From: a virus
Lineage: Duplodnaviria > Heunggongvirae > Uroviricota > Caudoviricetes
Virus record (IMG/VR): IMGVR_UViG_2529292735_000007
Reading direction: 5' to 3' (one strand)
DNA: 12,295 nucleotides
In this document: in pieces, positions 1,774 to 9,461 of the stretch
Numbering within the stretch: the stretch's first letter is position 1
How the letters are laid out: the number at the start of each line of letters is the position of its first letter
Translations under genes and position numbers: made by a program
The notes under the pieces: generated by a model
Told to the model about the DNA's origin: nothing
The model's database searches: none
Seen by the model: only the letters and a program-made list of their open reading frames with translations

Positions 1774-2093
1774 GTAACCACTATGCACACACAAAAAAAC
1801 CGCTTGCCATGCCGCAATCAGTCAGGTTACATTTCCGCTGCGCCTCATAAAACGGGTGCCGGGATTGGAACCCCGCTGACAACCAAAGCGCACAACCGCG
1901 CCAGCGGTTTTTTTGTGCGTACCGTATCGCCACGTCTTTTTCGCACACGAATTATGGTGAGGCGTACGGGGCCGACTTCGGTCGGGCCGGGTTCTTTGGT
2001 TGCCGGTAGTTCCAACCCTGTACGTCTCACCACCCCGAGCTTGGAACCTCTGGATGGTGAGTTTTCAAAACTTACAACCAAAGAGGCCACACC
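1774..2093 (+). promoter_or_regulatory. structured non-coding region (candidate small RNA, attenuator or leader) between the small-gene operon and the replication module
   Basis: No ORF with protein-like composition or Shine-Dalgarno; contains a GC hairpin with UUCG loop (CCGAC-TTCG-GTCGG, about 1970..1988), complementary segments GTTCCAACC (about 2009..2017) / TTGGAACC (2041..2048) and CTCACCA (about 2029..2035) / TGGTGAG (about 2055..2061), and repeated CAACCAAAG. Confidence 0.3.
1893..1915 (+). terminator. putative rho-independent terminator
   Basis: ACCGC-gcca-GCGGT hairpin (1895..1908) immediately followed by a run of 7 T (1908..1914); lies about 120 nt downstream of the stop at 1773. 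Confidence 0.4.
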
Positions 2094-2396: not shown

Positions 2397-2762
2397 ATGA
2401 TTCTCGCCAACGACTTTCTTGAATACCTGCTCAACACAGAGCGTGATCTTGCCGTTCGCGTGCGTGACCGTTATGACATGTACCTGAAATCCCTGCCTGT
2501 ACCGCAGCTCGCTGACGGAAAGATTGTTATTGATGGCCGCTACATGATTGACAGCCACGAGGGAAATTACAGGCTTTACCGCATTGAAGGTGGCACCCCG
2601 TCCGTTATTGGCATTTACCAGCGCCCATCCTCTGCAATCGTCGATGTGATTGCCGACAGCATCCGCATCACACATCGCCATGCCGACACAGAAGACACCG
2701 TGCTGGAAATTCAGCGGCTGGCTGCCGTCTGCCGCGACACCCTGAATGGCATGACGAAGTAA
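2397..2762 (+). CDS. hypothetical protein (121 aa) immediately upstream of the replication initiator
   Basis: ATG at 2397 with AGAGGA upstream; ends 6 nt before the start of the rep gene, consistent with co-transcription; no motif recognised. Confidence 0.5.
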   Translation: MILANDFLEYLLNTERDLAVRVRDRYDMYLKSLPVPQLADGKIVIDGRYMIDSHEGNYRLYRIEGGTPSVIGIYQRPSSAIVDVIADSIRITHRHADTEDTVLEIQRLAAVCRDTLNGMTK

Positions 2763-2768
2763 ATCACT

Positions 2769-5591
2769 ATGACGGCAGAGTACATCAGGGACTGGCAACA
2801 ACCGCGCCACGCGGTGGGGCGTGAAGGAACGGGGATCCCCGCTCCTGAATCCGCGCTTTCCTCCTGGCTGGGTGCCTACCGGGTAGAGAACGAGCGCCGC
2901 CAGGAAATGGCTGATGCGGCGTTCTCCGCCACGCCGCTGGGCAACCTGATTAATAAAAGCCTGGACGCACAGAAAAAACAGGACAAAACCATCACACTGG
3001 CAGGAGACGCCAGAAAACAGGCACGCGGCGCGGTGGATGAAGCCATGGCCTCGCTGCGCCTGCTGCCGTCCTATCTGCGCGATCCGCTTATTCGCCACCT
3101 CTCCTTCCTGCGCAAAAAACAGGAAGCCGATCGCCGGAAAGGCAAAAAGAGCTGGCAGGCGGAACGCTATGCACGCGGAACCCTGCGCAAAATATTCGAA
3201 CGTCTGGACCGCACTGATCACCGCTGGCTGACACCGGATTATCGCTCCCTTGCTGGACGCGAACGCCTGGACGATTTGCTTTACCTGCCGCAGCTCAACA
3301 AACACCAGATACAGACGCTGGCCACCATGACGGCGGCGATGTTCAGCAGCACCTTCGAAAAACTCTGCGATGGCTTTGGCGCGACTGATGGCGAACTGAC
3401 CATGGATGTAACGCTGAAGGCGTATCAGATGCTGGCCCGCATGGCGTTACACCTGCACGCCATGCCTCCACATTATGACGCACTGACAACAGACAAAGAC
3501 CGGAGGAACGAACCGGACACAGAGCTGCTGCCGGGCGCAATCCTTCGCCTGACCTGTGCGGAATGGTGGAAACGCAAACTATGGCTGTTACGTTGCGAGT
3601 GGAGAGAAGAACAACTCCGCGCCGCCTGTCTGGTTTCCAGAAAAACATCGCCCTATCTGAGCCAGGACGCGTTAAGCGAGTTTCGCGCACAGCGCGAGAA
3701 AACACGCGATTTCCTGAAAAGTTTCATGCTGGAAAACGAAGACGGGTTCACGATTGATCTCGAGACAGTGTATTACGCGGGAGTAAGTAACCCGGTTCAC
3801 CGTAAGGCAGAAATGATGGCCACCATGAAGGGACTGGAACTTCTGGCCGAAGCCCGTGGCGACAGAGCGGTGTTTCTGACTGTCACCTGCCCGTCAAAAT
3901 ACCACGCAACAACGGAGAACGGTCATCCGAACCCCAAATGGAACGGGGCCACCATGCGCGACTCCAGCGATTACCTGGTTAACACGTTTTTTGCGGCGGT
4001 CCGCAAAAAACTGAACCGCGACGGCCTGCGCTGGTATGGCATCCGCACGGTGGAGCCTCACCATGACGGCACCGTGCACTGGCATATGATGGTCTTTGCT
4101 CATCCGGAAGAAATCGACACCATTGTGTCCCACGTCCGCGATATTGCCATTCAGGAAGACCGCCACGAGCTGGGCAATGATATTACTCCACGCTTTAAAG
4201 TGGAGTATGTCGACGGCTCAAAAGGCACACCAACCAGCTATATCGCGACCTACATCGGGAAAAACCTGGACAGCCGCGCCGTGGATGGCATCGACCCGAA
4301 AACGGGCAAACCACGCGTTGACCACGAAACCGGAAAATCAATGGCCGAGAGCGTGGAGCGCGCCATCGGTTGGGCACGCCTTCACCGGGTCCGCCAGTTC
4401 CAGTTCTTTGGCATCCCCTCCCGTCAGGTGTGGCGTGAACTCCGCCGCCTTGCCAGCCAGATGGCACGCAACCCGGAAGGCCCGCAACGGCTGAAGGATG
4501 ACGCAATGGATGCGGTACTCGCTGCCGCTGATGCCGGATGTTTTGCCACCTACATAGAGAAACAGGGCGGCGTACTTGTTCCACGCAAAGACTACCTGAT
4601 TCGCACCGCCTACGACCTCGCCGATGAGCTGAACGATTACGGCGAACAGAGTGTACAGATTTACGGGATCTGGTCACCACTCATCGGGGAATCCTCCCGT
4701 GTGTGCACGCACCCGGATAACTGGAAGCTGGTAAGACGTAAACCGGAACAGGAAGGCAGCGCCCACGAAAATGGTTTTGACCTTCAGGGCGGCCCTGCCG
4801 CCCCTTGGACTCGTGGCAATAACTGTCCCAGTGTACAGGAAACAGACAACAACGGGACAGAACAGCCGGAAGAACGGCCAGCACCGTGGCCGCAGCTTCC
4901 TGACGGCATTGAAGTGAATGAATGGATGCACTCACTGAAACGGCACGAACGCCGGGCGCTGATGCGTTCGCTGCGTGACAAACAGGCCAAAAACAGCAGC
5001 GATGAAATGCAGAACTGGACGCAGAGCCGCAAACAGCCGCGGCCTTTGCCTGATAACCACGAGTTACTCGCTAAAGAATGGCGGGAGTCTGCTGAATCTC
5101 TCGGCCTGCATATTGGTGAACAGCAGATGCAGCACCTGTTACGGGGCGGCAGTCTGTACGTTGACGGCAGCATCATTGCACCGCAGGGATTTGAAATTGT
5201 ACGCAAACCGGATACCCGCCCGGACAGCCGAATCACGCAGCTCTGGCAGCGCCTGAGCCGTAATCACGGCGTAAGCAGCACGGAGATCCGCCATAACCCG
5301 GTCGCCAGCTATCTGGAACAGCTGGGGGCATCAGACCCTGAAGCCGCCGCACGCCTGGCATCCACACTTCAGCAGGACCAGAACACCATGAAAACACCCG
5401 TTACCGTGCTTTCTGACATGCTGCGCGCCATCCGCGACGCAGAGCACGCACAGAGAATCAGTGAAACCACTGAACGCGCCCGCCGCAAAGCAGACCTGCT
5501 GCGGGGTGGCCTGACCAGTGGAAACAAAAAACAGACAGAAACGGGATTCACAAATCCCGTAAATGAGCAAAAAACGCGCCGCGATATATGA
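2769..5591 (+). CDS. A: rolling-circle replication initiator (HUH-type endonuclease, P2 gpA / phiX174 gpA superfamily I), 940 aa
   Basis: Translation contains EPHHDGTVHWHMMVFAHPEE (HWH at nt 4077..4085) and the paired active-site tyrosines in SYIATYIGKN (Tyr codons 4239..4241 and 4251..4253, Y-x3-Y spacing as in phiX174 gpA YVAKYV); position upstream of the Q-P-O head genes matches P2-like prophage order. Confidence 0.85.
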   Translation: MTAEYIRDWQQPRHAVGREGTGIPAPESALSSWLGAYRVENERRQEMADAAFSATPLGNLINKSLDAQKKQDKTITLAGDARKQARGAVDEAMASLRLLPSYLRDPLIRHLSFLRKKQEADRRKGKKSWQAERYARGTLRKIFERLDRTDHRWLTPDYRSLAGRERLDDLLYLPQLNKHQIQTLATMTAAMFSSTFEKLCDGFGATDGELTMDVTLKAYQMLARMALHLHAMPPHYDALTTDKDRRNEPDTELLPGAILRLTCAEWWKRKLWLLRCEWREEQLRAACLVSRKTSPYLSQDALSEFRAQREKTRDFLKSFMLENEDGFTIDLETVYYAGVSNPVHRKAEMMATMKGLELLAEARGDRAVFLTVTCPSKYHATTENGHPNPKWNGATMRDSSDYLVNTFFAAVRKKLNRDGLRWYGIRTVEPHHDGTVHWHMMVFAHPEEIDTIVSHVRDIAIQEDRHELGNDITPRFKVEYVDGSKGTPTSYIATYIGKNLDSRAVDGIDPKTGKPRVDHETGKSMAESVERAIGWARLHRVRQFQFFGIPSRQVWRELRRLASQMARNPEGPQRLKDDAMDAVLAAADAGCFATYIEKQGGVLVPRKDYLIRTAYDLADELNDYGEQSVQIYGIWSPLIGESSRVCTHPDNWKLVRRKPEQEGSAHENGFDLQGGPAAPWTRGNNCPSVQETDNNGTEQPEERPAPWPQLPDGIEVNEWMHSLKRHERRALMRSLRDKQAKNSSDEMQNWTQSRKQPRPLPDNHELLAKEWRESAESLGLHIGEQQMQHLLRGGSLYVDGSIIAPQGFEIVRKPDTRPDSRITQLWQRLSRNHGVSSTEIRHNPVASYLEQLGASDPEAAARLASTLQQDQNTMKTPVTVLSDMLRAIRDAEHAQRISETTERARRKADLLRGGLTSGNKKQTETGFTNPVNEQKTRRDI

Positions 5592-5667: not shown

Positions 5668-6627
5668 ATGAAAATTTGTATCGACGACGGCTCCACCAAC
5701 ATCAAGCTGGCATGGACTGAGAACGGCGAACGCCGCAACGCCATCAGCCCGAACAGCTTCAAGTCGGAATGGTCTGCGCCGTTCGGTGGCACGCAGCCCG
5801 CGAACTACATGCTTGATGGCGTGCGCTATGGTTTTGATCCGGTCAGCGATCGCTTTGTCCAGACGACCGACACGCAATACCAGTACAGTGATGTGAATGT
5901 CATTGCCATTCATCACGCACTGGTCAAATCAGGCATCACGCCACAGGAGGTGGATGTGGTTGTCACCCTGCCACTGAGCGAGTATTTCGACACAAACGCA
6001 CAGCCGGACATGGCCAACATCAACCGCAAAAAAGCGAACGTTATGCGCCCGGTGGAGTACCAGAACGGCGAAGCATTCACTATCCGTAACGTGCGGGTTA
6101 TGCCTGAATCCATTCCGGCTGGCTTTAAAGCACTGGCTGACATGAGTCCGTTTGAATCCCTGCTGATTGTGGATTTAGGCGGAACCACGCTGGATGTGGC
6201 AAAGGTTCAGGGACAACTGGCAGGTATCAGCCAGGTGTTTTGCGATCCACACGTAGGCGTTTCCCTGATGGCCGATGCCGTACTGTCGGTGATGGCCACT
6301 AACGGTATGCGTACCAGTCACCACATCGCCAATACCATTATCGAACATCGCCATGATGAAGCCTGGTTGCGCCAACACATCCACAATGACGCGCATTACG
6401 CCAGCCTGATGGCGGTTATTCGTGAAAAGGAAGAAACACTGAAACAACGCGTGATCCGCGCGCTGGCGGGTTTTTCGGGTTACGGACGGGTGATGGTTGT
6501 CGGTGGTGGGGCGGAGATTGTGGCACCCGCTATCCGCGAAGCCTGCGGAGTTAATGCGACTTTCATCGCGGACGGGGTGCCACAGTTTGCTCTGGTTAAT
6601 GGGCTGTACGCAATGGACAAGGAGTAA
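5668..6627 (+). CDS. parM: ParM/StbA-family actin-like segregation ATPase (type II partition), 319 aa
   Basis: AAGGAAAA Shine-Dalgarno then ATG; translation matches plasmid R1 ParM as recalled from memory along its length (ICIDDGSTNIKLAW, ISPNSFK, QYSDVNVIAIHHAL, VMPESIPAGF, LLIVDLGGTTLDV, GVSL, VVGGGAE, LVNGLYA). Confidence 0.9.
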   Translation: MKICIDDGSTNIKLAWTENGERRNAISPNSFKSEWSAPFGGTQPANYMLDGVRYGFDPVSDRFVQTTDTQYQYSDVNVIAIHHALVKSGITPQEVDVVVTLPLSEYFDTNAQPDMANINRKKANVMRPVEYQNGEAFTIRNVRVMPESIPAGFKALADMSPFESLLIVDLGGTTLDVAKVQGQLAGISQVFCDPHVGVSLMADAVLSVMATNGMRTSHHIANTIIEHRHDEAWLRQHIHNDAHYASLMAVIREKEETLKQRVIRALAGFSGYGRVMVVGGGAEIVAPAIREACGVNATFIADGVPQFALVNGLYAMDKE

Positions 6628-6631
6628 ACCA

Positions 6632-6946
6632 ATGACGACACCAACCAGACGGATAAGTTTCTATCTGAAGCCCGCCGCCGTCAATAGTGAACGGAAGGCG
6701 TGTAATTACCTCGACAGCCTGCCAGCCTCTGAACGCAGCCGCGCGCAACGCGCGGCCTTTCTGGCCGGGCTGGCACTCATAAAACGCGATCCTGCATTTG
6801 CCTATTGGTTGGCCGAATGGCCGGAAGAAGGAGCTGCGCCAGCAAAGAATAATATTCAGAGTAAATATGCCAGCACACCTGCCACCGGAAGCAATCACAG
6901 CACTAGCGAGATAAGAAAGAACATTCAGTCATTTTTCCCGGAGTGA
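6632..6946 (+). CDS. parR: ParR-like ribbon-helix-helix centromere-binding protein / partition adaptor, about 105 aa
   Basis: ATG at 6632, 4 nt after the parM stop; N-terminus RRISFYLKPAAVNSERKACNYLDSLPASERSRAQRAAFLAGLALIKRDP resembles R1 ParR (RTIAFKLNPDVNQ...LDSIPQGERSRLNRAALTAGLALYRQDP, from memory); the track ORF 6497..6946 is the same frame extended upstream. Confidence 0.75.
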   Translation: MTTPTRRISFYLKPAAVNSERKACNYLDSLPASERSRAQRAAFLAGLALIKRDPAFAYWLAEWPEEGAAPAKNNIQSKYASTPATGSNHSTSEIRKNIQSFFPE

Positions 6947-8029: not shown

Positions 8030-8441
8030 ACTTTTTGCCCTTCCGGCCCGCGGGGCGACTGGATCCGTCAAGGATCCGTGCGTGCACAAAAAAACGCGTT
8101 TTTTCTGCGCGCAGGTGACGGGGGAACAGCCCGCGTTTCAGGGGGTAAATAGCGTTCCCTTAACGATGTCGCAGCGACACGACAGAATGGCCGTATTTCT
8201 CACGCTGAGCGTGAAAAATACGTGAGGGCTTTTGATTTGATGGGGTGAAAGGTAAGGCCGTCAAAATCGCACTGAGGCGGCGAGAACATGCAGTCAGCGC
8301 AGTGGGATTGCGTAAGAGTCTGACCGTCGATGATGGCAATAAGCAGGAAAGCGTCGTGAAATTATCTGACTGATACAGGAGCTGGAGAGTCGGGGCATAA
8401 ATTTTTTATGCCCCGGCGAAGCAGCAGACAAGCGAAGCGCG
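8030..8441. other. non-coding region downstream of portal gene Q; expected location of cos and packaging signals
   Basis: No credible ORF; contains GGATCCGT direct repeats (about 8062..8079), the perfect palindrome AAAAAACGCGTTTTTT (8089..8104) and a GCGGGG-containing stretch (about 8047..8056) only loosely similar to the P2/186 cohesive-end sequence as recalled; the exact cos site could not be identified. Confidence 0.3.
8392..8414. terminator. palindromic hairpin about 28 nt downstream of the Q stop (possible bidirectional terminator)
   Basis: GGGGCATAAA-ttt-TTTATGCCCC perfect inverted repeat; lacks a clean external U-tract on either strand, so the terminator call is tentative. Confidence 0.35.
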
Positions 8442-9461
8442 TCAGGATGTGGGCTGGGTGTCTAACAGTGCGTAAGGGTTAAAGCGGATCACCTCTTCGC
8501 CAAGCCAGTCATTGATGTGCTTCATGGCCTCCATGACGGGCATCAGCTCGTTAATTGCGTAAACCCGCGCGGCCTTCTCCACATCACCAAGCGCACTTTT
8601 TTCGCCCGGCATCGCCCCCATCAGTTGCGGCGGAACGCGGTGCGCAGCCAGCACATCATCACGGGATGCCGCCTTAACATTCATGAACTCATCTTTTGCG
8701 GTGATCTGCTGGAACGGCAAAATTTGCACCCCCTCTTTGCCCCCGTTGGGCGCATGAATGAGCACGTTTTTAAACGCACCACCACCACGTGCACCCTGTA
8801 GCGTTTCTTTCAGGGAGTCCATGCTTTCGCGGTTTACCTGCGCTGCACCGATGTAGATGATGCACCCGGCGTGGGATCCGTTGTCGTAATACAGTTTTCT
8901 GAACATGTCCGCCGAATGAGACAGGCTGGCCGAGAGTAATGCGCCGAGATATTCCGGCATGCCGTAGATTTCCTGGTTAATGTCAGGATTCATCAGGTGG
9001 CACACTTTGCCAGGGCGAAACTGAAACGCGTCCTTGCCATCCTGCACATACCACCATGATTCAAGATCGCTTCCGCGTCGCATGTATTTCGCCAGGGCGT
9101 GCCGTAATTTAAGCGGTTCGCCGAGCATATTACTCCGAAGCTCAAGGAATGCGTTACCGAACACAAAACAGTCCAGCGCCAGCGCCGAGAAATCCTGCCG
9201 GGAAAGCAGCGGGTGCGGGATGTAGCAACCGAGTAATACATTGCGCTTAAAGTAAAGCGCAGACTGATGCCAGGACGTTTGCCGGGCAGCTCTTGCCAGA
9301 CCGTACCAGTCCACCGGGGTTTCATACCACCGCCCGTTATCAGCACAGTACATATTGTCCAGCAGGTCATGCCCGGTCAGGCGATAAGGCCCATCAAATG
9401 TGAATGCACTGAGCGACGATTCATTCCTGAGCGCATCAGCGAGATCAATGCGTGAACTCAT
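8442..9461 (-). CDS. Q: portal protein (P2 gpQ-like), about 339 aa
   Basis: Long minus-strand ORF directly downstream of the terminase large subunit gene and divergent from scaffold/capsid genes, as in P2 (Q-P leftward, O-N rightward); size matches gpQ; start placed at the first ATG (9461..9459, MSSRIDLADAL...), whereas the track ORF extends to 9572 via a non-ATG start. Confidence 0.8.
   Translation of the reverse strand: MSSRIDLADALRNESSLSAFTFDGPYRLTGHDLLDNMYCADNGRWYETPVDWYGLARAARQTSWHQSALYFKRNVLLGCYIPHPLLSRQDFSALALDCFVFGNAFLELRSNMLGEPLKLRHALAKYMRRGSDLESWWYVQDGKDAFQFRPGKVCHLMNPDINQEIYGMPEYLGALLSASLSHSADMFRKLYYDNGSHAGCIIYIGAAQVNRESMDSLKETLQGARGGGAFKNVLIHAPNGGKEGVQILPFQQITAKDEFMNVKAASRDDVLAAHRVPPQLMGAMPGEKSALGDVEKAARVYAINELMPVMEAMKHINDWLGEEVIRFNPYALLDTQPTS

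Follow-up and report, generated by a model that had tools for sequence, protein, structure and literature searches.

The closest described counterparts of the locus studied here are found in several phages. The immunity region of the satellite phage P4 consists of the promoter PLE, seqA, CI (with seqB) and seqC, the genes kil and eta, which are nested, the Rho-dependent terminator timm, and then epsilon, orf151 and alpha, with timm located directly past seqC (X51522, positions 8365-8209). The eta/kil/timm model is summarized in PMC10111431 and PMC3177188; in the account of Forti et al. 1999 that is given in PMC10111431, eta is translated from an upstream promoter, and an internal promoter makes the RNAs. 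The small RNA IsrK is the counterpart of seqA, and C4 is the counterpart of CI (PMC3632133). For Gifsy-1 (isrK, orf45/STnc1160, anrP), the mechanism of IsrK has been described, and for this locus only, binding of Hfq and activation in trans of the ORF that follows have been shown experimentally (PMC4825925). In lambdoid Stx and mEp460-type phages, the isrK-C4 pair lies within an "Ash-Rha antirepressor" gene. Another system is the immI region of P1 and P7, reportedly described by Citron and Schuster in 1990, with the c4 antisense RNA, icd and ant.

We analyzed a window of 12,295 nucleotides, i.e., the whole stretch of DNA at hand, which is 99.7% identical to Citrobacter phage Shae_phiSM and belongs to a P88-like (Xuanwuvirus, P2-family) prophage. 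All features described below are on the plus strand, unless stated otherwise. The interval 1774-2093 is bounded by the stop codon of a 183-aa ORF (1773) and the ATG of a 76-aa ORF (2094). The initial annotation had delimited this interval correctly, every feature that it listed is indeed there, and it had described the interval as a non-coding stretch with a small regulatory RNA or an attenuator acting on replication genes. In essence, that proposal is supported: matches to the Rfam families isrK and C4, the pair that forms the seqA/CI immunity system of P4, exceed their gathering scores. However, the single element proposed is in fact a pair of RNAs transcribed from a promoter of their own, and the stretch is not simply non-coding, as discussed below. 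It is highly probable that this stretch is an RNA-based immunity module with the same architecture as seqA-CI-seqC in P4 and as the Gifsy-1 locus of IsrK. The ordered isrK-C4 pair is common to P4, P88-like phages and lambdoid Stx phages, and here it is followed by an epsilon-like gene, a 121-aa ORF and gene A, which encodes the replication endonuclease. It should be noted that a tRNA/tmRNA search found none; therefore, an attachment-site reading of the stretch does not apply and was ruled out.

The first RNA is an IsrK/seqA-type small RNA (1840-1914), which matches RF01394 (isrK) full-length, over model positions 1-77 of 77, with 66.6 bits (gathering score 50); the same model also matches P4 and nine further relatives. 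The RNA consists of two hairpins, the second of which carries box a1 in its loop, the single-stranded box b1, and an intrinsic terminator, AACCGC-GCCA-GCGGTT followed by a T-run (1894-1914), which was found by a terminator scan and is the terminal hairpin of the isrK model. This is the terminator-like ACCGC/GCGGT hairpin with a tail of seven T that had been recognized earlier. IsrK alone folds no better than shuffled sequences (z = -1.1), so its identification comes from the covariance model and synteny, not from thermodynamics. The RNA is preceded by a sigma-70-type promoter, TTGCCA-18-TACATT (1804-1833), with a putative start site near 1840; a short RNA bounded by its own promoter and an intrinsic terminator is what characterizes RF01394 members. 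The promoter matches P4 PLE and the Gifsy-1 isrK promoter in position, its -35 and -10 hexamers align across the P4, lambdoid and P88-like loci, and the -10 hexamer keeps its offset in 41 of the 42 distinct segments that were compared upstream of isrK. It is the only site that a promoter scan of 1500-2500 detected, with none between the 76-aa, 121-aa and A genes. No LexA box was found near the promoter; even the best matches to CTG-N10-CAG are weak, and they are located in other places.

The second RNA is a C4 (CI-type) antisense RNA at 1950-2037, which matches RF01695 with 85.3 bits (gathering score 45) over model positions 1-87 of 87. The Rfam scan proposed in the initial annotation thus recovered both RNAs full-length, with E-values of 4e-16 and 9e-13 (4.4e-16 for C4). 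A closing stem of 17 bp (1955-1971 with 2016-2032), supported by the fold and the covariance model, surrounds two hairpins predicted by folding: hairpin 1, CCGAC-UUCG-GUCGG (1972-1985), which is the GC hairpin with a UUCG tetraloop noticed previously, and hairpin 2 (1986-2007), which carries the segment b'. The minimum free energy is -47 kcal/mol (z = -4.6; none of 200 shuffles was equal), and the minimum-free-energy structure is identical to the model structure. The comparative analysis, suggested earlier together with the folding, included 76 distinct relatives. In these, pairing is retained in 99.8% of cells, and 12 of the 27 pairs changed on both sides, i.e., in a compensatory manner, compared to 1 to 5 when partners were slid. 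Thus, the long closing stem around two hairpins that defines RF01695 is present and backed by covariation. We also observed that C4 has a tRNA-acceptor-like stem, followed by CCACC, the one indirect sign of the RNase P maturation, from a longer transcript to a stable RNA of about 77 nt, that is typical of the family. In addition to its own fold, the 3' arm of C4 can pair with a second copy of the 5' arm that is located further downstream (2026-2034 with 2053-2061). This alternative hairpin (2026-2061) has box a2 in its loop and is followed by UUUUCAAAA; its fold has -16.2 kcal/mol (z = -2.2), and in the 76 relatives 94.4% of cells are paired, with five of nine pairs compensatory, compared to 29-56% for slid controls. 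The closing stem and this alternative pairing account for the nested complementary segments that had been reported for the interval.

Two segments of C4 are exposed, a' (GUUCCAA, 2009-2015) in the unpaired junction and b' (UCUUUGGUUG, 1993-2002) in the 12-nt loop of hairpin 2, and both complementarity and covariation identify them as specificity determinants. IsrK contains box a1 (UUGGAAC, 1865-1871), an exact 7-nt complement of a', and box b1 (CAACCAAAG, 1880-1888), an exact 9-nt complement of the b' loop. Downstream of C4, box a2 (UUGGAAC, 2041-2047) is again a complement of a', and box b2 (CAACCAAAGA, 2075-2084, entered as a feature at 2075-2086) is an exact 10-nt complement of b' that overlaps the Shine-Dalgarno sequence AAAGAGG (2080-2086) of the 76-aa gene. 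Such complementarity between exposed segments and target boxes of a single transcript is another property of the RF01695 family. The 9-mer CAACCAAAG or its complement occurs three times within 200 nt, whereas 0.13 occurrences are expected in the whole window, and the composite TTGGAAC...CAACCAAAG occurs twice, compared to an expectation of 0.

Relatives were sought using a degenerate C4 DNA pattern on viral contigs (a scan of genome contigs with the 76-aa protein yielded one locus only), and covariation of the boxes was studied in 110 distinct related loci. MAFFT lost the register of a2 and b2 between phage classes; therefore, intermolecular covariation was measured by a script that compares cognate pairings to non-cognate pairings, the latter serving as control. 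There are 18 distinct a' and 39 distinct b' variants, found in 57 combinations. A perfect complement of at least 7 nt to a' is present in the cognate upstream flank of 107 and the cognate downstream flank of 108 of the 110 loci; for b', the corresponding numbers are 81 and 91. Non-cognate pairings average 3.7-4.4 nt (mean of 4.3 nt for b2). The boxes a and b in IsrK, in C4 and downstream change together across the 110 loci.

These data bear on two simple explanations of the hairpins. GC-rich spacers often fold, and the structures could be chance hairpins in an intergenic spacer; considering the E-values of both Rfam matches, the shuffle controls, and a match with at least 80% identity in 1291 of the 5426 complete genomes of E. 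coli, this is scarcely credible, and the hairpin and repeat features listed above exceed chance. A plain cis-acting terminator or attenuator that closes the block of accessory genes upstream and involves no RNA acting in trans would fit the location of the intrinsic terminator, about 120 nt past the 183-aa gene, and the second hairpin with its trailing U-tract at 2026-2070. However, it leaves unexplained the conserved isrK promoter, the full-length C4 match and the three-way covariation over 57 combinations, and we regard it as very improbable. Of the attenuator suggested initially, the idea of control is retained, but its form is different: an antisense RNA, C4, directed at two boxes, one of them over a Shine-Dalgarno sequence.

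Two long ORFs overlap the interval, as listed in the initial annotation: a 122-aa ORF on the minus strand (1845-2213) and a 205-codon read-through ORF on the plus strand (1783-2400), which is the positional counterpart of P4 eta. The latter had been dismissed, a view that we cannot share, because its product matches Pfam PF10554 (Phage_ASH) above threshold (33.2 bits, cutoff 26; aa 16-107, i.e., nt 1828-2103) and its openness is kept across the family. This ORF extends across the promoter, the genes of both RNAs and the target boxes as well as, in another frame, the entire epsilon-like gene, and terminates in ATGA (2397-2400), overlapping the start codon of the next gene. It should be noted that the +1 frame of the 76-aa gene remains open in 4-74% of synonymous-codon shuffles, so an open frame is weak evidence for any single sequence. 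An ORF open by chance was considered and set aside on the family-wide pattern. The frame of the long ORF is stop-free in 102 of 109 related loci, compared to 4 and 2 for the other two frames. All spacer length classes (96, 99, 105, 120, 135, 153, 171 and 180 nt) are multiples of three. There are no in-frame stops in this frame among 41 b' strings and 17 a' strings, whereas in frame 1 stops are present in 20 of the b' and none of the a' strings, and in frame 2 the numbers of such strings are 7 and 9, respectively. The ATGA junction recurs in at least six different junction sequences.

The open frame and the Pfam match could mean that the ORF encodes a genuine "Ash family" regulatory protein, and that the hairpins are incidental to coding. 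The frame being open family-wide, its ATGA end on the next gene, PHROG matches annotated as "transcriptional regulator" and the RefSeq name "ash family protein" are all in line with such a protein. However, the Phage_ASH match coincides exactly with isrK, C4 and their target boxes, changes within C4 compensate each other with respect to RNA pairing, and the hypervariable a' and b' segments alter amino acids freely. The amino-acid sequence of the ORF is not conserved. The ratio of synonymous to non-synonymous changes over the overlap with the 76-aa gene is 441:1782, the same as in the closed frame; where it can be tested, there is no synonymous excess, and hence no sign of constraint or selection at the protein level that membership in PF10554 implies. 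Furthermore, there is no Shine-Dalgarno sequence ahead of the ATG at 1783, and BLASTP detected no significant similarity to the product of the P4 eta frame (E = 0.14). A genuine Ash protein is thus very unlikely: the Pfam Ash domain is a conceptual translation of the isrK and C4 RNA genes, and selection appears to act on the openness of the frame alone, not on its product. The initial annotation had also taken translation of the 205-aa ORF as grounds to reject a regulatory RNA. This does not follow, since P4 eta, in the account available in PMC10111431, is translated and the RNAs are made nevertheless; our comparative data point in the same direction, that translation of the ORF is compatible with the RNAs.

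The first gene downstream of the RNAs, the 76-aa gene (2094-2324), encodes a homologue of the P4 epsilon derepression protein. BLASTP shows 29% identity to P4 epsilon over 66 aa, from residue 1 (E = 2e-8), and phrog_3688 is matched with 128 bits. The match to Pfam PF25738 (Derepression) has 22.1 bits, below the cutoff of 27; given this score and the BLASTP E-value, the protein is a distant epsilon homologue, not a curated member of the family. The gene has a clear coding signature, with 28, 29 and 52 variable columns by codon position and a synonymous to non-synonymous ratio of 1322:901. Judging from the position of b2, it is probably the first gene under C4 control. A C-rich, G-poor tract (2163-2352) is located within and just past this gene; its C/G ratios (3.10 at 2163-2240, 2.80 at 2275-2352) exceed all others in the window, and the GC-skew minimum (-0.25) is at 2101-2400; base composition and the analogy to P4 suggest a candidate Rho-loading region. 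Next are the 121-aa ORF (2397-2762), which matches phrog_3237, has an ATG overlapping the stop of the long ORF and shows no similarity to P4 orf151 (E = 0.17), and a replication endonuclease of the P2 gene A family (2769-5591; Pfam Phage_GPA, 435 bits, and the record annotation). The three genes are closely spaced on one strand, and gene A is likely to be the downstream gene ultimately controlled by the module. The initial proposal, which named the replication genes, needs correction in this respect: the first controlled gene is the homologue of the derepression protein, and the replication genes are behind it.

We suggest the following mechanism. The promoter at 1804-1833 would be constitutive and initiate transcription near 1840, and the majority of transcripts would end at the 1894-1914 terminator, yielding an IsrK/seqA RNA of about 75 nt. 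Read-through transcripts would carry C4 (1950-2037), which is presumably excised as a stable RNA, with RNase P assumed to be responsible, by analogy to P1 C4 and P4 CI. The b' loop and the unpaired a' junction would then pair with boxes b2 and a2 just downstream, b2 pairing would mask the Shine-Dalgarno sequence of the 76-aa gene and block translation, and the untranslated C-rich RNA would undergo premature, probably Rho-dependent, termination. In the lysogen, the 121-aa gene and replication gene A would be kept off. Boxes a1 and b1 of IsrK are the same as the targets, and IsrK may compete for C4 as a decoy or activator. Transcripts from an upstream early promoter, outside the window, would include the ATG at 1783; ribosomes in the 205-codon frame would cross the terminator, C4 and the target boxes, with a handover at the ATGA overlap. 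Translation of the long frame may thereby make lytic transcription insensitive to C4, as has been shown for P4 eta.

This scheme is similar to that of P4 in many respects. Both RF01394 and RF01695 match P4 in the same order and orientation, the promoter aligns, boxes a and b are found on both sides of the antisense RNA, and the downstream b box (seqC) covers the site at which ribosomes bind to translate the first gene; the order promoter, seqA/isrK, CI/C4, seqC of the P4-type operon is thus reproduced. In addition, the long ORF starts ahead of the internal promoter and continues across both RNAs (its translation is predicted), an epsilon-type gene is followed by a replication gene, and the C-rich tract is at the position of timm. 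There are also differences. The prophage is a complete P2-family phage, whereas P4 is a satellite; it has an A-type endonuclease of P2 instead of the alpha primase-helicase, and the isrK-C4 spacer is 35 nt, compared to 107 nt in P4. There is no kil, and the epsilon-like gene directly follows b2. An in-frame nested first gene of the P4 type was not found: from the invariant AUG at 1954 to 2094 there are 140 nt, and the frame is different. The long ORF overlaps the whole epsilon-like gene out of frame, whereas kil of P4 is in frame with eta, so the P4 model is not transferable one-to-one.

The Gifsy-1 locus shares with this module an RNA of the IsrK family that has a promoter of its own and a terminator that is leaky, a (here presumably) processed downstream RNA that has complementarity in common with IsrK, an AUG-started ORF in the region with translation coupled to the next gene, and control of an anti-repressor-type protein. 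However, that ORF has 45 codons and ends at anrP, compared to the 148 codons of the frame from AUG 1954 here, and the activating role of IsrK is experimental in Gifsy-1, whereas here it is suggested by likeness. In lambdoid phages, the alignment includes the promoter, both RNAs and the boxes, with 72-75% identity, and the long ORF is joined to the upstream gene by an ATGA overlap; in contrast to the present locus, where the long frame overlaps the controlled gene in another frame, it is continuous with a Rha-type antirepressor (about 383 aa; Pfam Ash and Phage_pRha). As for P1 and P7, immI has the same family, RF01695, and the same a1 b1 / a' b' / a2 b2 logic, with a downstream target that covers a ribosome-binding site and an antirepressor-type function under control; the downstream genes are not known to be related (icd/ant versus epsilon-like/A).

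This last comparison raises the possibility that control is of the P1/P7 type only, i.e., that C4 blocks translation of an epsilon-like antirepressor, with the aim of derepressing a P2-type C repressor, its own or that of a co-resident phage, and not of regulating transcription of the replication genes. The layout of boxes, with b2 on the ribosome-binding site, resembles that of P1 c4-icd-ant, and the first controlled gene is the epsilon homologue. In Gifsy-1, the same pair of RNAs gates a prophage-inducing antirepressor (PMC4825925). Conversely, the genes are densely packed on one strand and the scan of 1500-2500 detected no internal promoter, so polarity on the replication genes is hard to avoid, and both the C-rich tract and the P4 timm precedent point to termination. 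We consider this narrower control possible, but rather unlikely; it overlaps the explanation that includes termination and does not exclude it.

The immunity module with control extending to the replication genes is a known kind of phage switch, this assignment is well supported, and the present copy is an additional member. It has practical consequences for annotation. Public records label this locus as a pseudogene of an "ash family protein" or as encoding a hypothetical protein, contain no RNA gene, and can be corrected directly by the addition of two RNA genes. One survey took the Ash domain as a marker of P4 epsilon (PMC8628076); since Ash is a translation of the RNA genes, Ash-based surveys detect the immunity region, not epsilon. 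The module is present, at 80% identity or more, in the E. coli genomes counted above, and it decides whether the derepression and replication genes of a widespread prophage family are silent. The a' and b' boxes, with their 57 combinations, probably allow the immunity type to be read from sequence alone. Finally, we tentatively propose, as a speculative extension, that in P88-like phages of the P2 family the promoter in use determines how one stretch of RNA is decoded, with two readings that exclude each other: as the 205-codon frame from the early promoter, and as IsrK and C4 from the internal one. The early-promoter frame would then, through the ATGA junction, pass ribosomes on to the replication genes and bypass both the control by C4 and the synthesis of epsilon. 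Transcripts from the internal promoter would not be translated but would mature into the two RNAs, which would jointly gate translation of the epsilon-like protein; under this RNA control, the protein would be an antirepressor directed at the P2-type C repressor of the phage itself. If this is true, this P2 lineage would have a route of induction that is lacking in P2 itself.

When the whole window was scanned with Rfam models at their curated thresholds, two matches were returned in all, both full-length, on the plus strand and inside the interval 1774-2093: isrK (RF01394, 1840-1914, 66.6 bits) and the C4 antisense RNA (RF01695, 1950-2037, 85.3 bits). The interval is bordered on its 5' side by the stop codon of a 183-aa DNA-binding-type ORF (1222-1773), and on its 3' side by the ATG of a 76-aa ORF (2094-2324). 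The initial annotation had called a regulatory RNA or attenuator here, and this call was right, given the matches to two curated families. The elements it listed can now be assigned: the UUCG hairpin is hairpin 1 of C4 (1972-1985), the ACCGC/GCGGT hairpin with its tail of seven T residues is the intrinsic terminator of IsrK (1894-1914), and the nested complementary segments correspond to the closing stem of C4 (17 bp) together with an alternative pairing of its 3' arm. The fold of C4 is the Rfam model structure (-47 kcal/mol, z = -4.6), and 0 of 200 shuffles were equally good; the fold of IsrK alone is not thermodynamically unusual compared to shuffles (z = -1.1).

The sole promoter-like site found in a scan of 1500-2500 is TTGCCA-18-TACATT on the plus strand (1804-1833), 7 nt upstream of the isrK model start. 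In an alignment, its hexamers line up with the -35/-10 of P4 and lambdoid relatives; the -10 offset of the best match was identical in 41 of 42 distinct upstream segments, with scores exceeding those of shuffled controls. The spacer between IsrK and C4 (35 nt) is too short for a second promoter; thus, C4 must arise by read-through of the IsrK terminator, like in Gifsy-1 and P4. The closing stem of C4 carries at its 5' base an AUGG (AUG at 1954-1956) that is invariant in all 109 related loci; it may both start an orf45-like frame, as in Gifsy-1, and belong to the stem recognised as an RNase P substrate.

Two specificity segments of C4 are exposed: hairpin 2 carries b' (UCUUUGGUUG, 1993-2002) in its loop, and the unpaired junction holds a' (GUUCCAA, 2009-2015). 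Both have exact complements in IsrK (a1, 1865-1871, in a hairpin loop; b1, 1880-1888) and again downstream of C4 (a2, 2041-2047; b2, 2075-2084), with b2 overlapping AAAGAGG (2080-2086), the Shine-Dalgarno of the 76-aa gene. The box-b 9-mer occurs three times in 200 nt, versus 0.13 occurrences expected in the whole window, and the composite a...b pattern twice, versus 0 expected. A degenerate C4 pattern search yielded 120 viral contigs, which together with annotated phages gave 110 distinct loci, carrying 18 a' variants and 39 b' variants in 57 combinations. Perfect complements of at least 7 nt were found in the cognate flanks for a' (107 loci upstream, 108 downstream) and for b' (81 upstream, 91 downstream), whereas the non-cognate control, C4 segments against the flanks of other loci, gave a mean complement of 3.7-4.4 nt. 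The co-change of a and b boxes is also plain by eye in the alignment of relatives.

Internal pairing of C4 was retained in 99.8% of alignment cells, with 12 of 27 pairs changed on both sides, compared to 32-46% and 1-5 pairs when partners were shifted by 1-3 columns. In an alternative hairpin (2026-2061), the 3' stem arm of C4 (2026-2034) pairs with a second copy of the 5' arm located further downstream (2053-2061), with a2 in the loop and UUUUCAAAA after the hairpin; 94.4% of cells are paired, and five of nine pairs are compensatory. Across the 110 loci, a' and b' boxes reassort independently (e.g., loci L034, L062 and L110), the b' of the window being found alongside three different a' variants, a pattern that suggests modular immunity types.

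IsrK corresponds to seqA of P4, and C4 to the P4 CI immunity RNA (PMC3632133; PMC4825925). Rfam models detect the same ordered pair, isrK followed by C4, in all P88-like loci, in lambdoid Stx and mEp460-type phages, and in satellite phage P4 itself, where it lies within the old "cI ORF" and immediately 5' of epsilon. Similarity of the 76-aa protein to P4 epsilon begins at residue 1 (29% identity over 66 aa, E = 2e-8); the protein's score against the Pfam Derepression family (22.1 bits) is under the cutoff of 27. Because the RNA pair is the same and an epsilon homologue follows, the layout of the P4 left operon (immunity RNAs, epsilon, replication gene) is shared. Three features differ: the host here is a complete P2-family phage, its replication gene is P2 A-type, and the first controlled gene sits inside the long ORF in another frame, whereas kil of P4 is nested in frame within eta. 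The system works like the Gifsy-1 IsrK locus and P4 immunity, and like immI of P1. In one of the lambdoid relatives, the Stx2a phage Stx2_131990 (4064-4180, minus strand), an ALIL pseudoknot, a frameshift element of IS3-family insertion sequences, adjoins the immunity region; it has no relation to the isrK-C4 finding.

With Citrobacter phage Shae_phiSM the region shares 99.7% identity, and with other Xuanwuvirus phages (Peduoviridae, P2-family), Escherichia phage P88 among them, 84-88%; a copy with at least 80% identity is present in 1291 of 5426 complete E. coli genomes. In the phage genomes it lies in the rightward early operon, in the order cox, small accessory genes, the RNA stretch, the 76-aa gene, a 121-aa gene, endonuclease A (Pfam GPA, 435 bits) and parM/parR-like genes. 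The endonuclease (2769-5591) has 940 aa, with the GPA domain limited to aa 179-503; the Pfam search gave no family match for the first 178 aa or for the last ~440 aa. ParM (5668-6627) and ParR-like (~6632-6943) plasmid segregation genes directly 3' of gene A hint that the replicative state of this P2-family prophage is plasmid-like or actively partitioned. A strong hairpin without a U-tract (2335-2366, GGGCCUUUCCUGC...GCGGGAGGCC) lies 3' of the 76-aa stop codon and ahead of the 121-aa gene; it is near-invariant in P88-like loci, where the flanking coding sequence is variable.

The 205-aa ORF had been dismissed in the initial annotation as low-complexity and lacking a ribosome-binding site; the dismissal does not hold, as the ORF matches Pfam Phage_ASH (PF10554) above threshold and its frame looks constrained family-wide. 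The match (aa 16-107, nt 1828-2103) covers exactly both RNAs and their targets. In P4, Phage_ASH matches the old "cI ORF" (8168-8584, minus strand, 59.7 bits), and in lambdoid phages the N-terminal part of "antirepressor" ORFs, exactly at isrK and C4; in locus L008 the match is at 1994-2285. Because the matches coincide with isrK and C4 in P4 and in the lambdoid ORFs, the Ash domain is a conceptual translation of the isrK-C4-seqC RNA region.

The frame of the invariant AUG (1954) contains no stop codon over 252 nt in 102 of the 109 loci, compared to 4 and 2 for the other frames. The spacing between a conserved isrK motif and this AUG falls into eight classes (96, 99, 105, 120, 135, 153, 171 and 180 nt), every one a multiple of 3, with only two exceptions, which carry a compensated +1/-1 shift. 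In these, L004 (E. albertii) and L130, box a1 has gained one nucleotide and box a2 has lost one, shifting the frame across C4; the long frame is open throughout and returns to register. In-frame stops are absent from all 41 b' and 17 a' strings; the other frames often carry them. In P88-like loci the long frame extends over 148 codons and runs through the whole of the 76-aa gene, in the +1 frame of that gene. It terminates in an ATGA that includes the start codon of the following gene, and at least six different junction sequences show this arrangement (window 2397-2400; L018, L026, L052, L079, L098, L110), which suggests translational coupling into the replication genes. Within 2094-2324 the coding signature belongs to the 76-aa frame (28/29/52 variable columns by codon position; synonymous to non-synonymous changes, 1322:901); the amino acid sequence of the long frame is not conserved there (441:1782), like that of the closed frame (443:1545). 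When single sequences were shuffled synonymously, 4-74% of trials kept an open +1 frame; therefore, the argument for constraint rests on the family-wide pattern. This pattern fits the description of P4 eta, which, in the account of Forti et al. (1999) given in PMC10111431, starts upstream of the internal constitutive promoter, is translated only from an upstream promoter, and prevents termination by its translation.

In the lysogen, the internal promoter would give IsrK, ended at 1914, and by read-through C4, which would pair with a2 and b2 and block the ribosome-binding site of the epsilon-like gene. After b2, the RNA reaches a C/G ratio of 3.1 (2163-2240), the maximum for the window, at the same relative position as the Rho-dependent terminator timm of P4 (X51522, 8365-8209). 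Since this C-rich RNA would be untranslated, premature termination ahead of the 121-aa gene and gene A is likely. IsrK, bearing the same boxes, could compete for C4; in Gifsy-1, IsrK provided in trans switches on the downstream antirepressor and induces the prophage (PMC4825925). Early-promoter transcripts would be translated in the long frame and thereby escape C4 control. Four elements of this scheme are inferences: processing by RNase P, participation of Rho, IsrK acting as a decoy, and what the epsilon-like protein targets.

The Shae_phiSM, P88 and Xuanwuvirus records have no RNA gene annotated at this stretch, and label the 205-aa or 76-aa ORF as a hypothetical protein or "derepression protein". 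RefSeq E. coli genomes carry either an "ash family protein" pseudogene with "missing C-terminus" (e.g., MB06101, locus L132, 710-970) or just "derepression protein", and no ncRNA feature at the site, though both Rfam models score well above threshold. The Ash domain is without an assigned function (PMC8951638), and a survey of P4-like satellites took PF10554 as the "epsilon" marker (PMC8628076); P4 epsilon has no Phage_ASH match and its family is PF25738. Both RNAs belong to curated Rfam families, the biology is already known, and the interest of the finding is modest; its useful by-products are corrections of these annotations.
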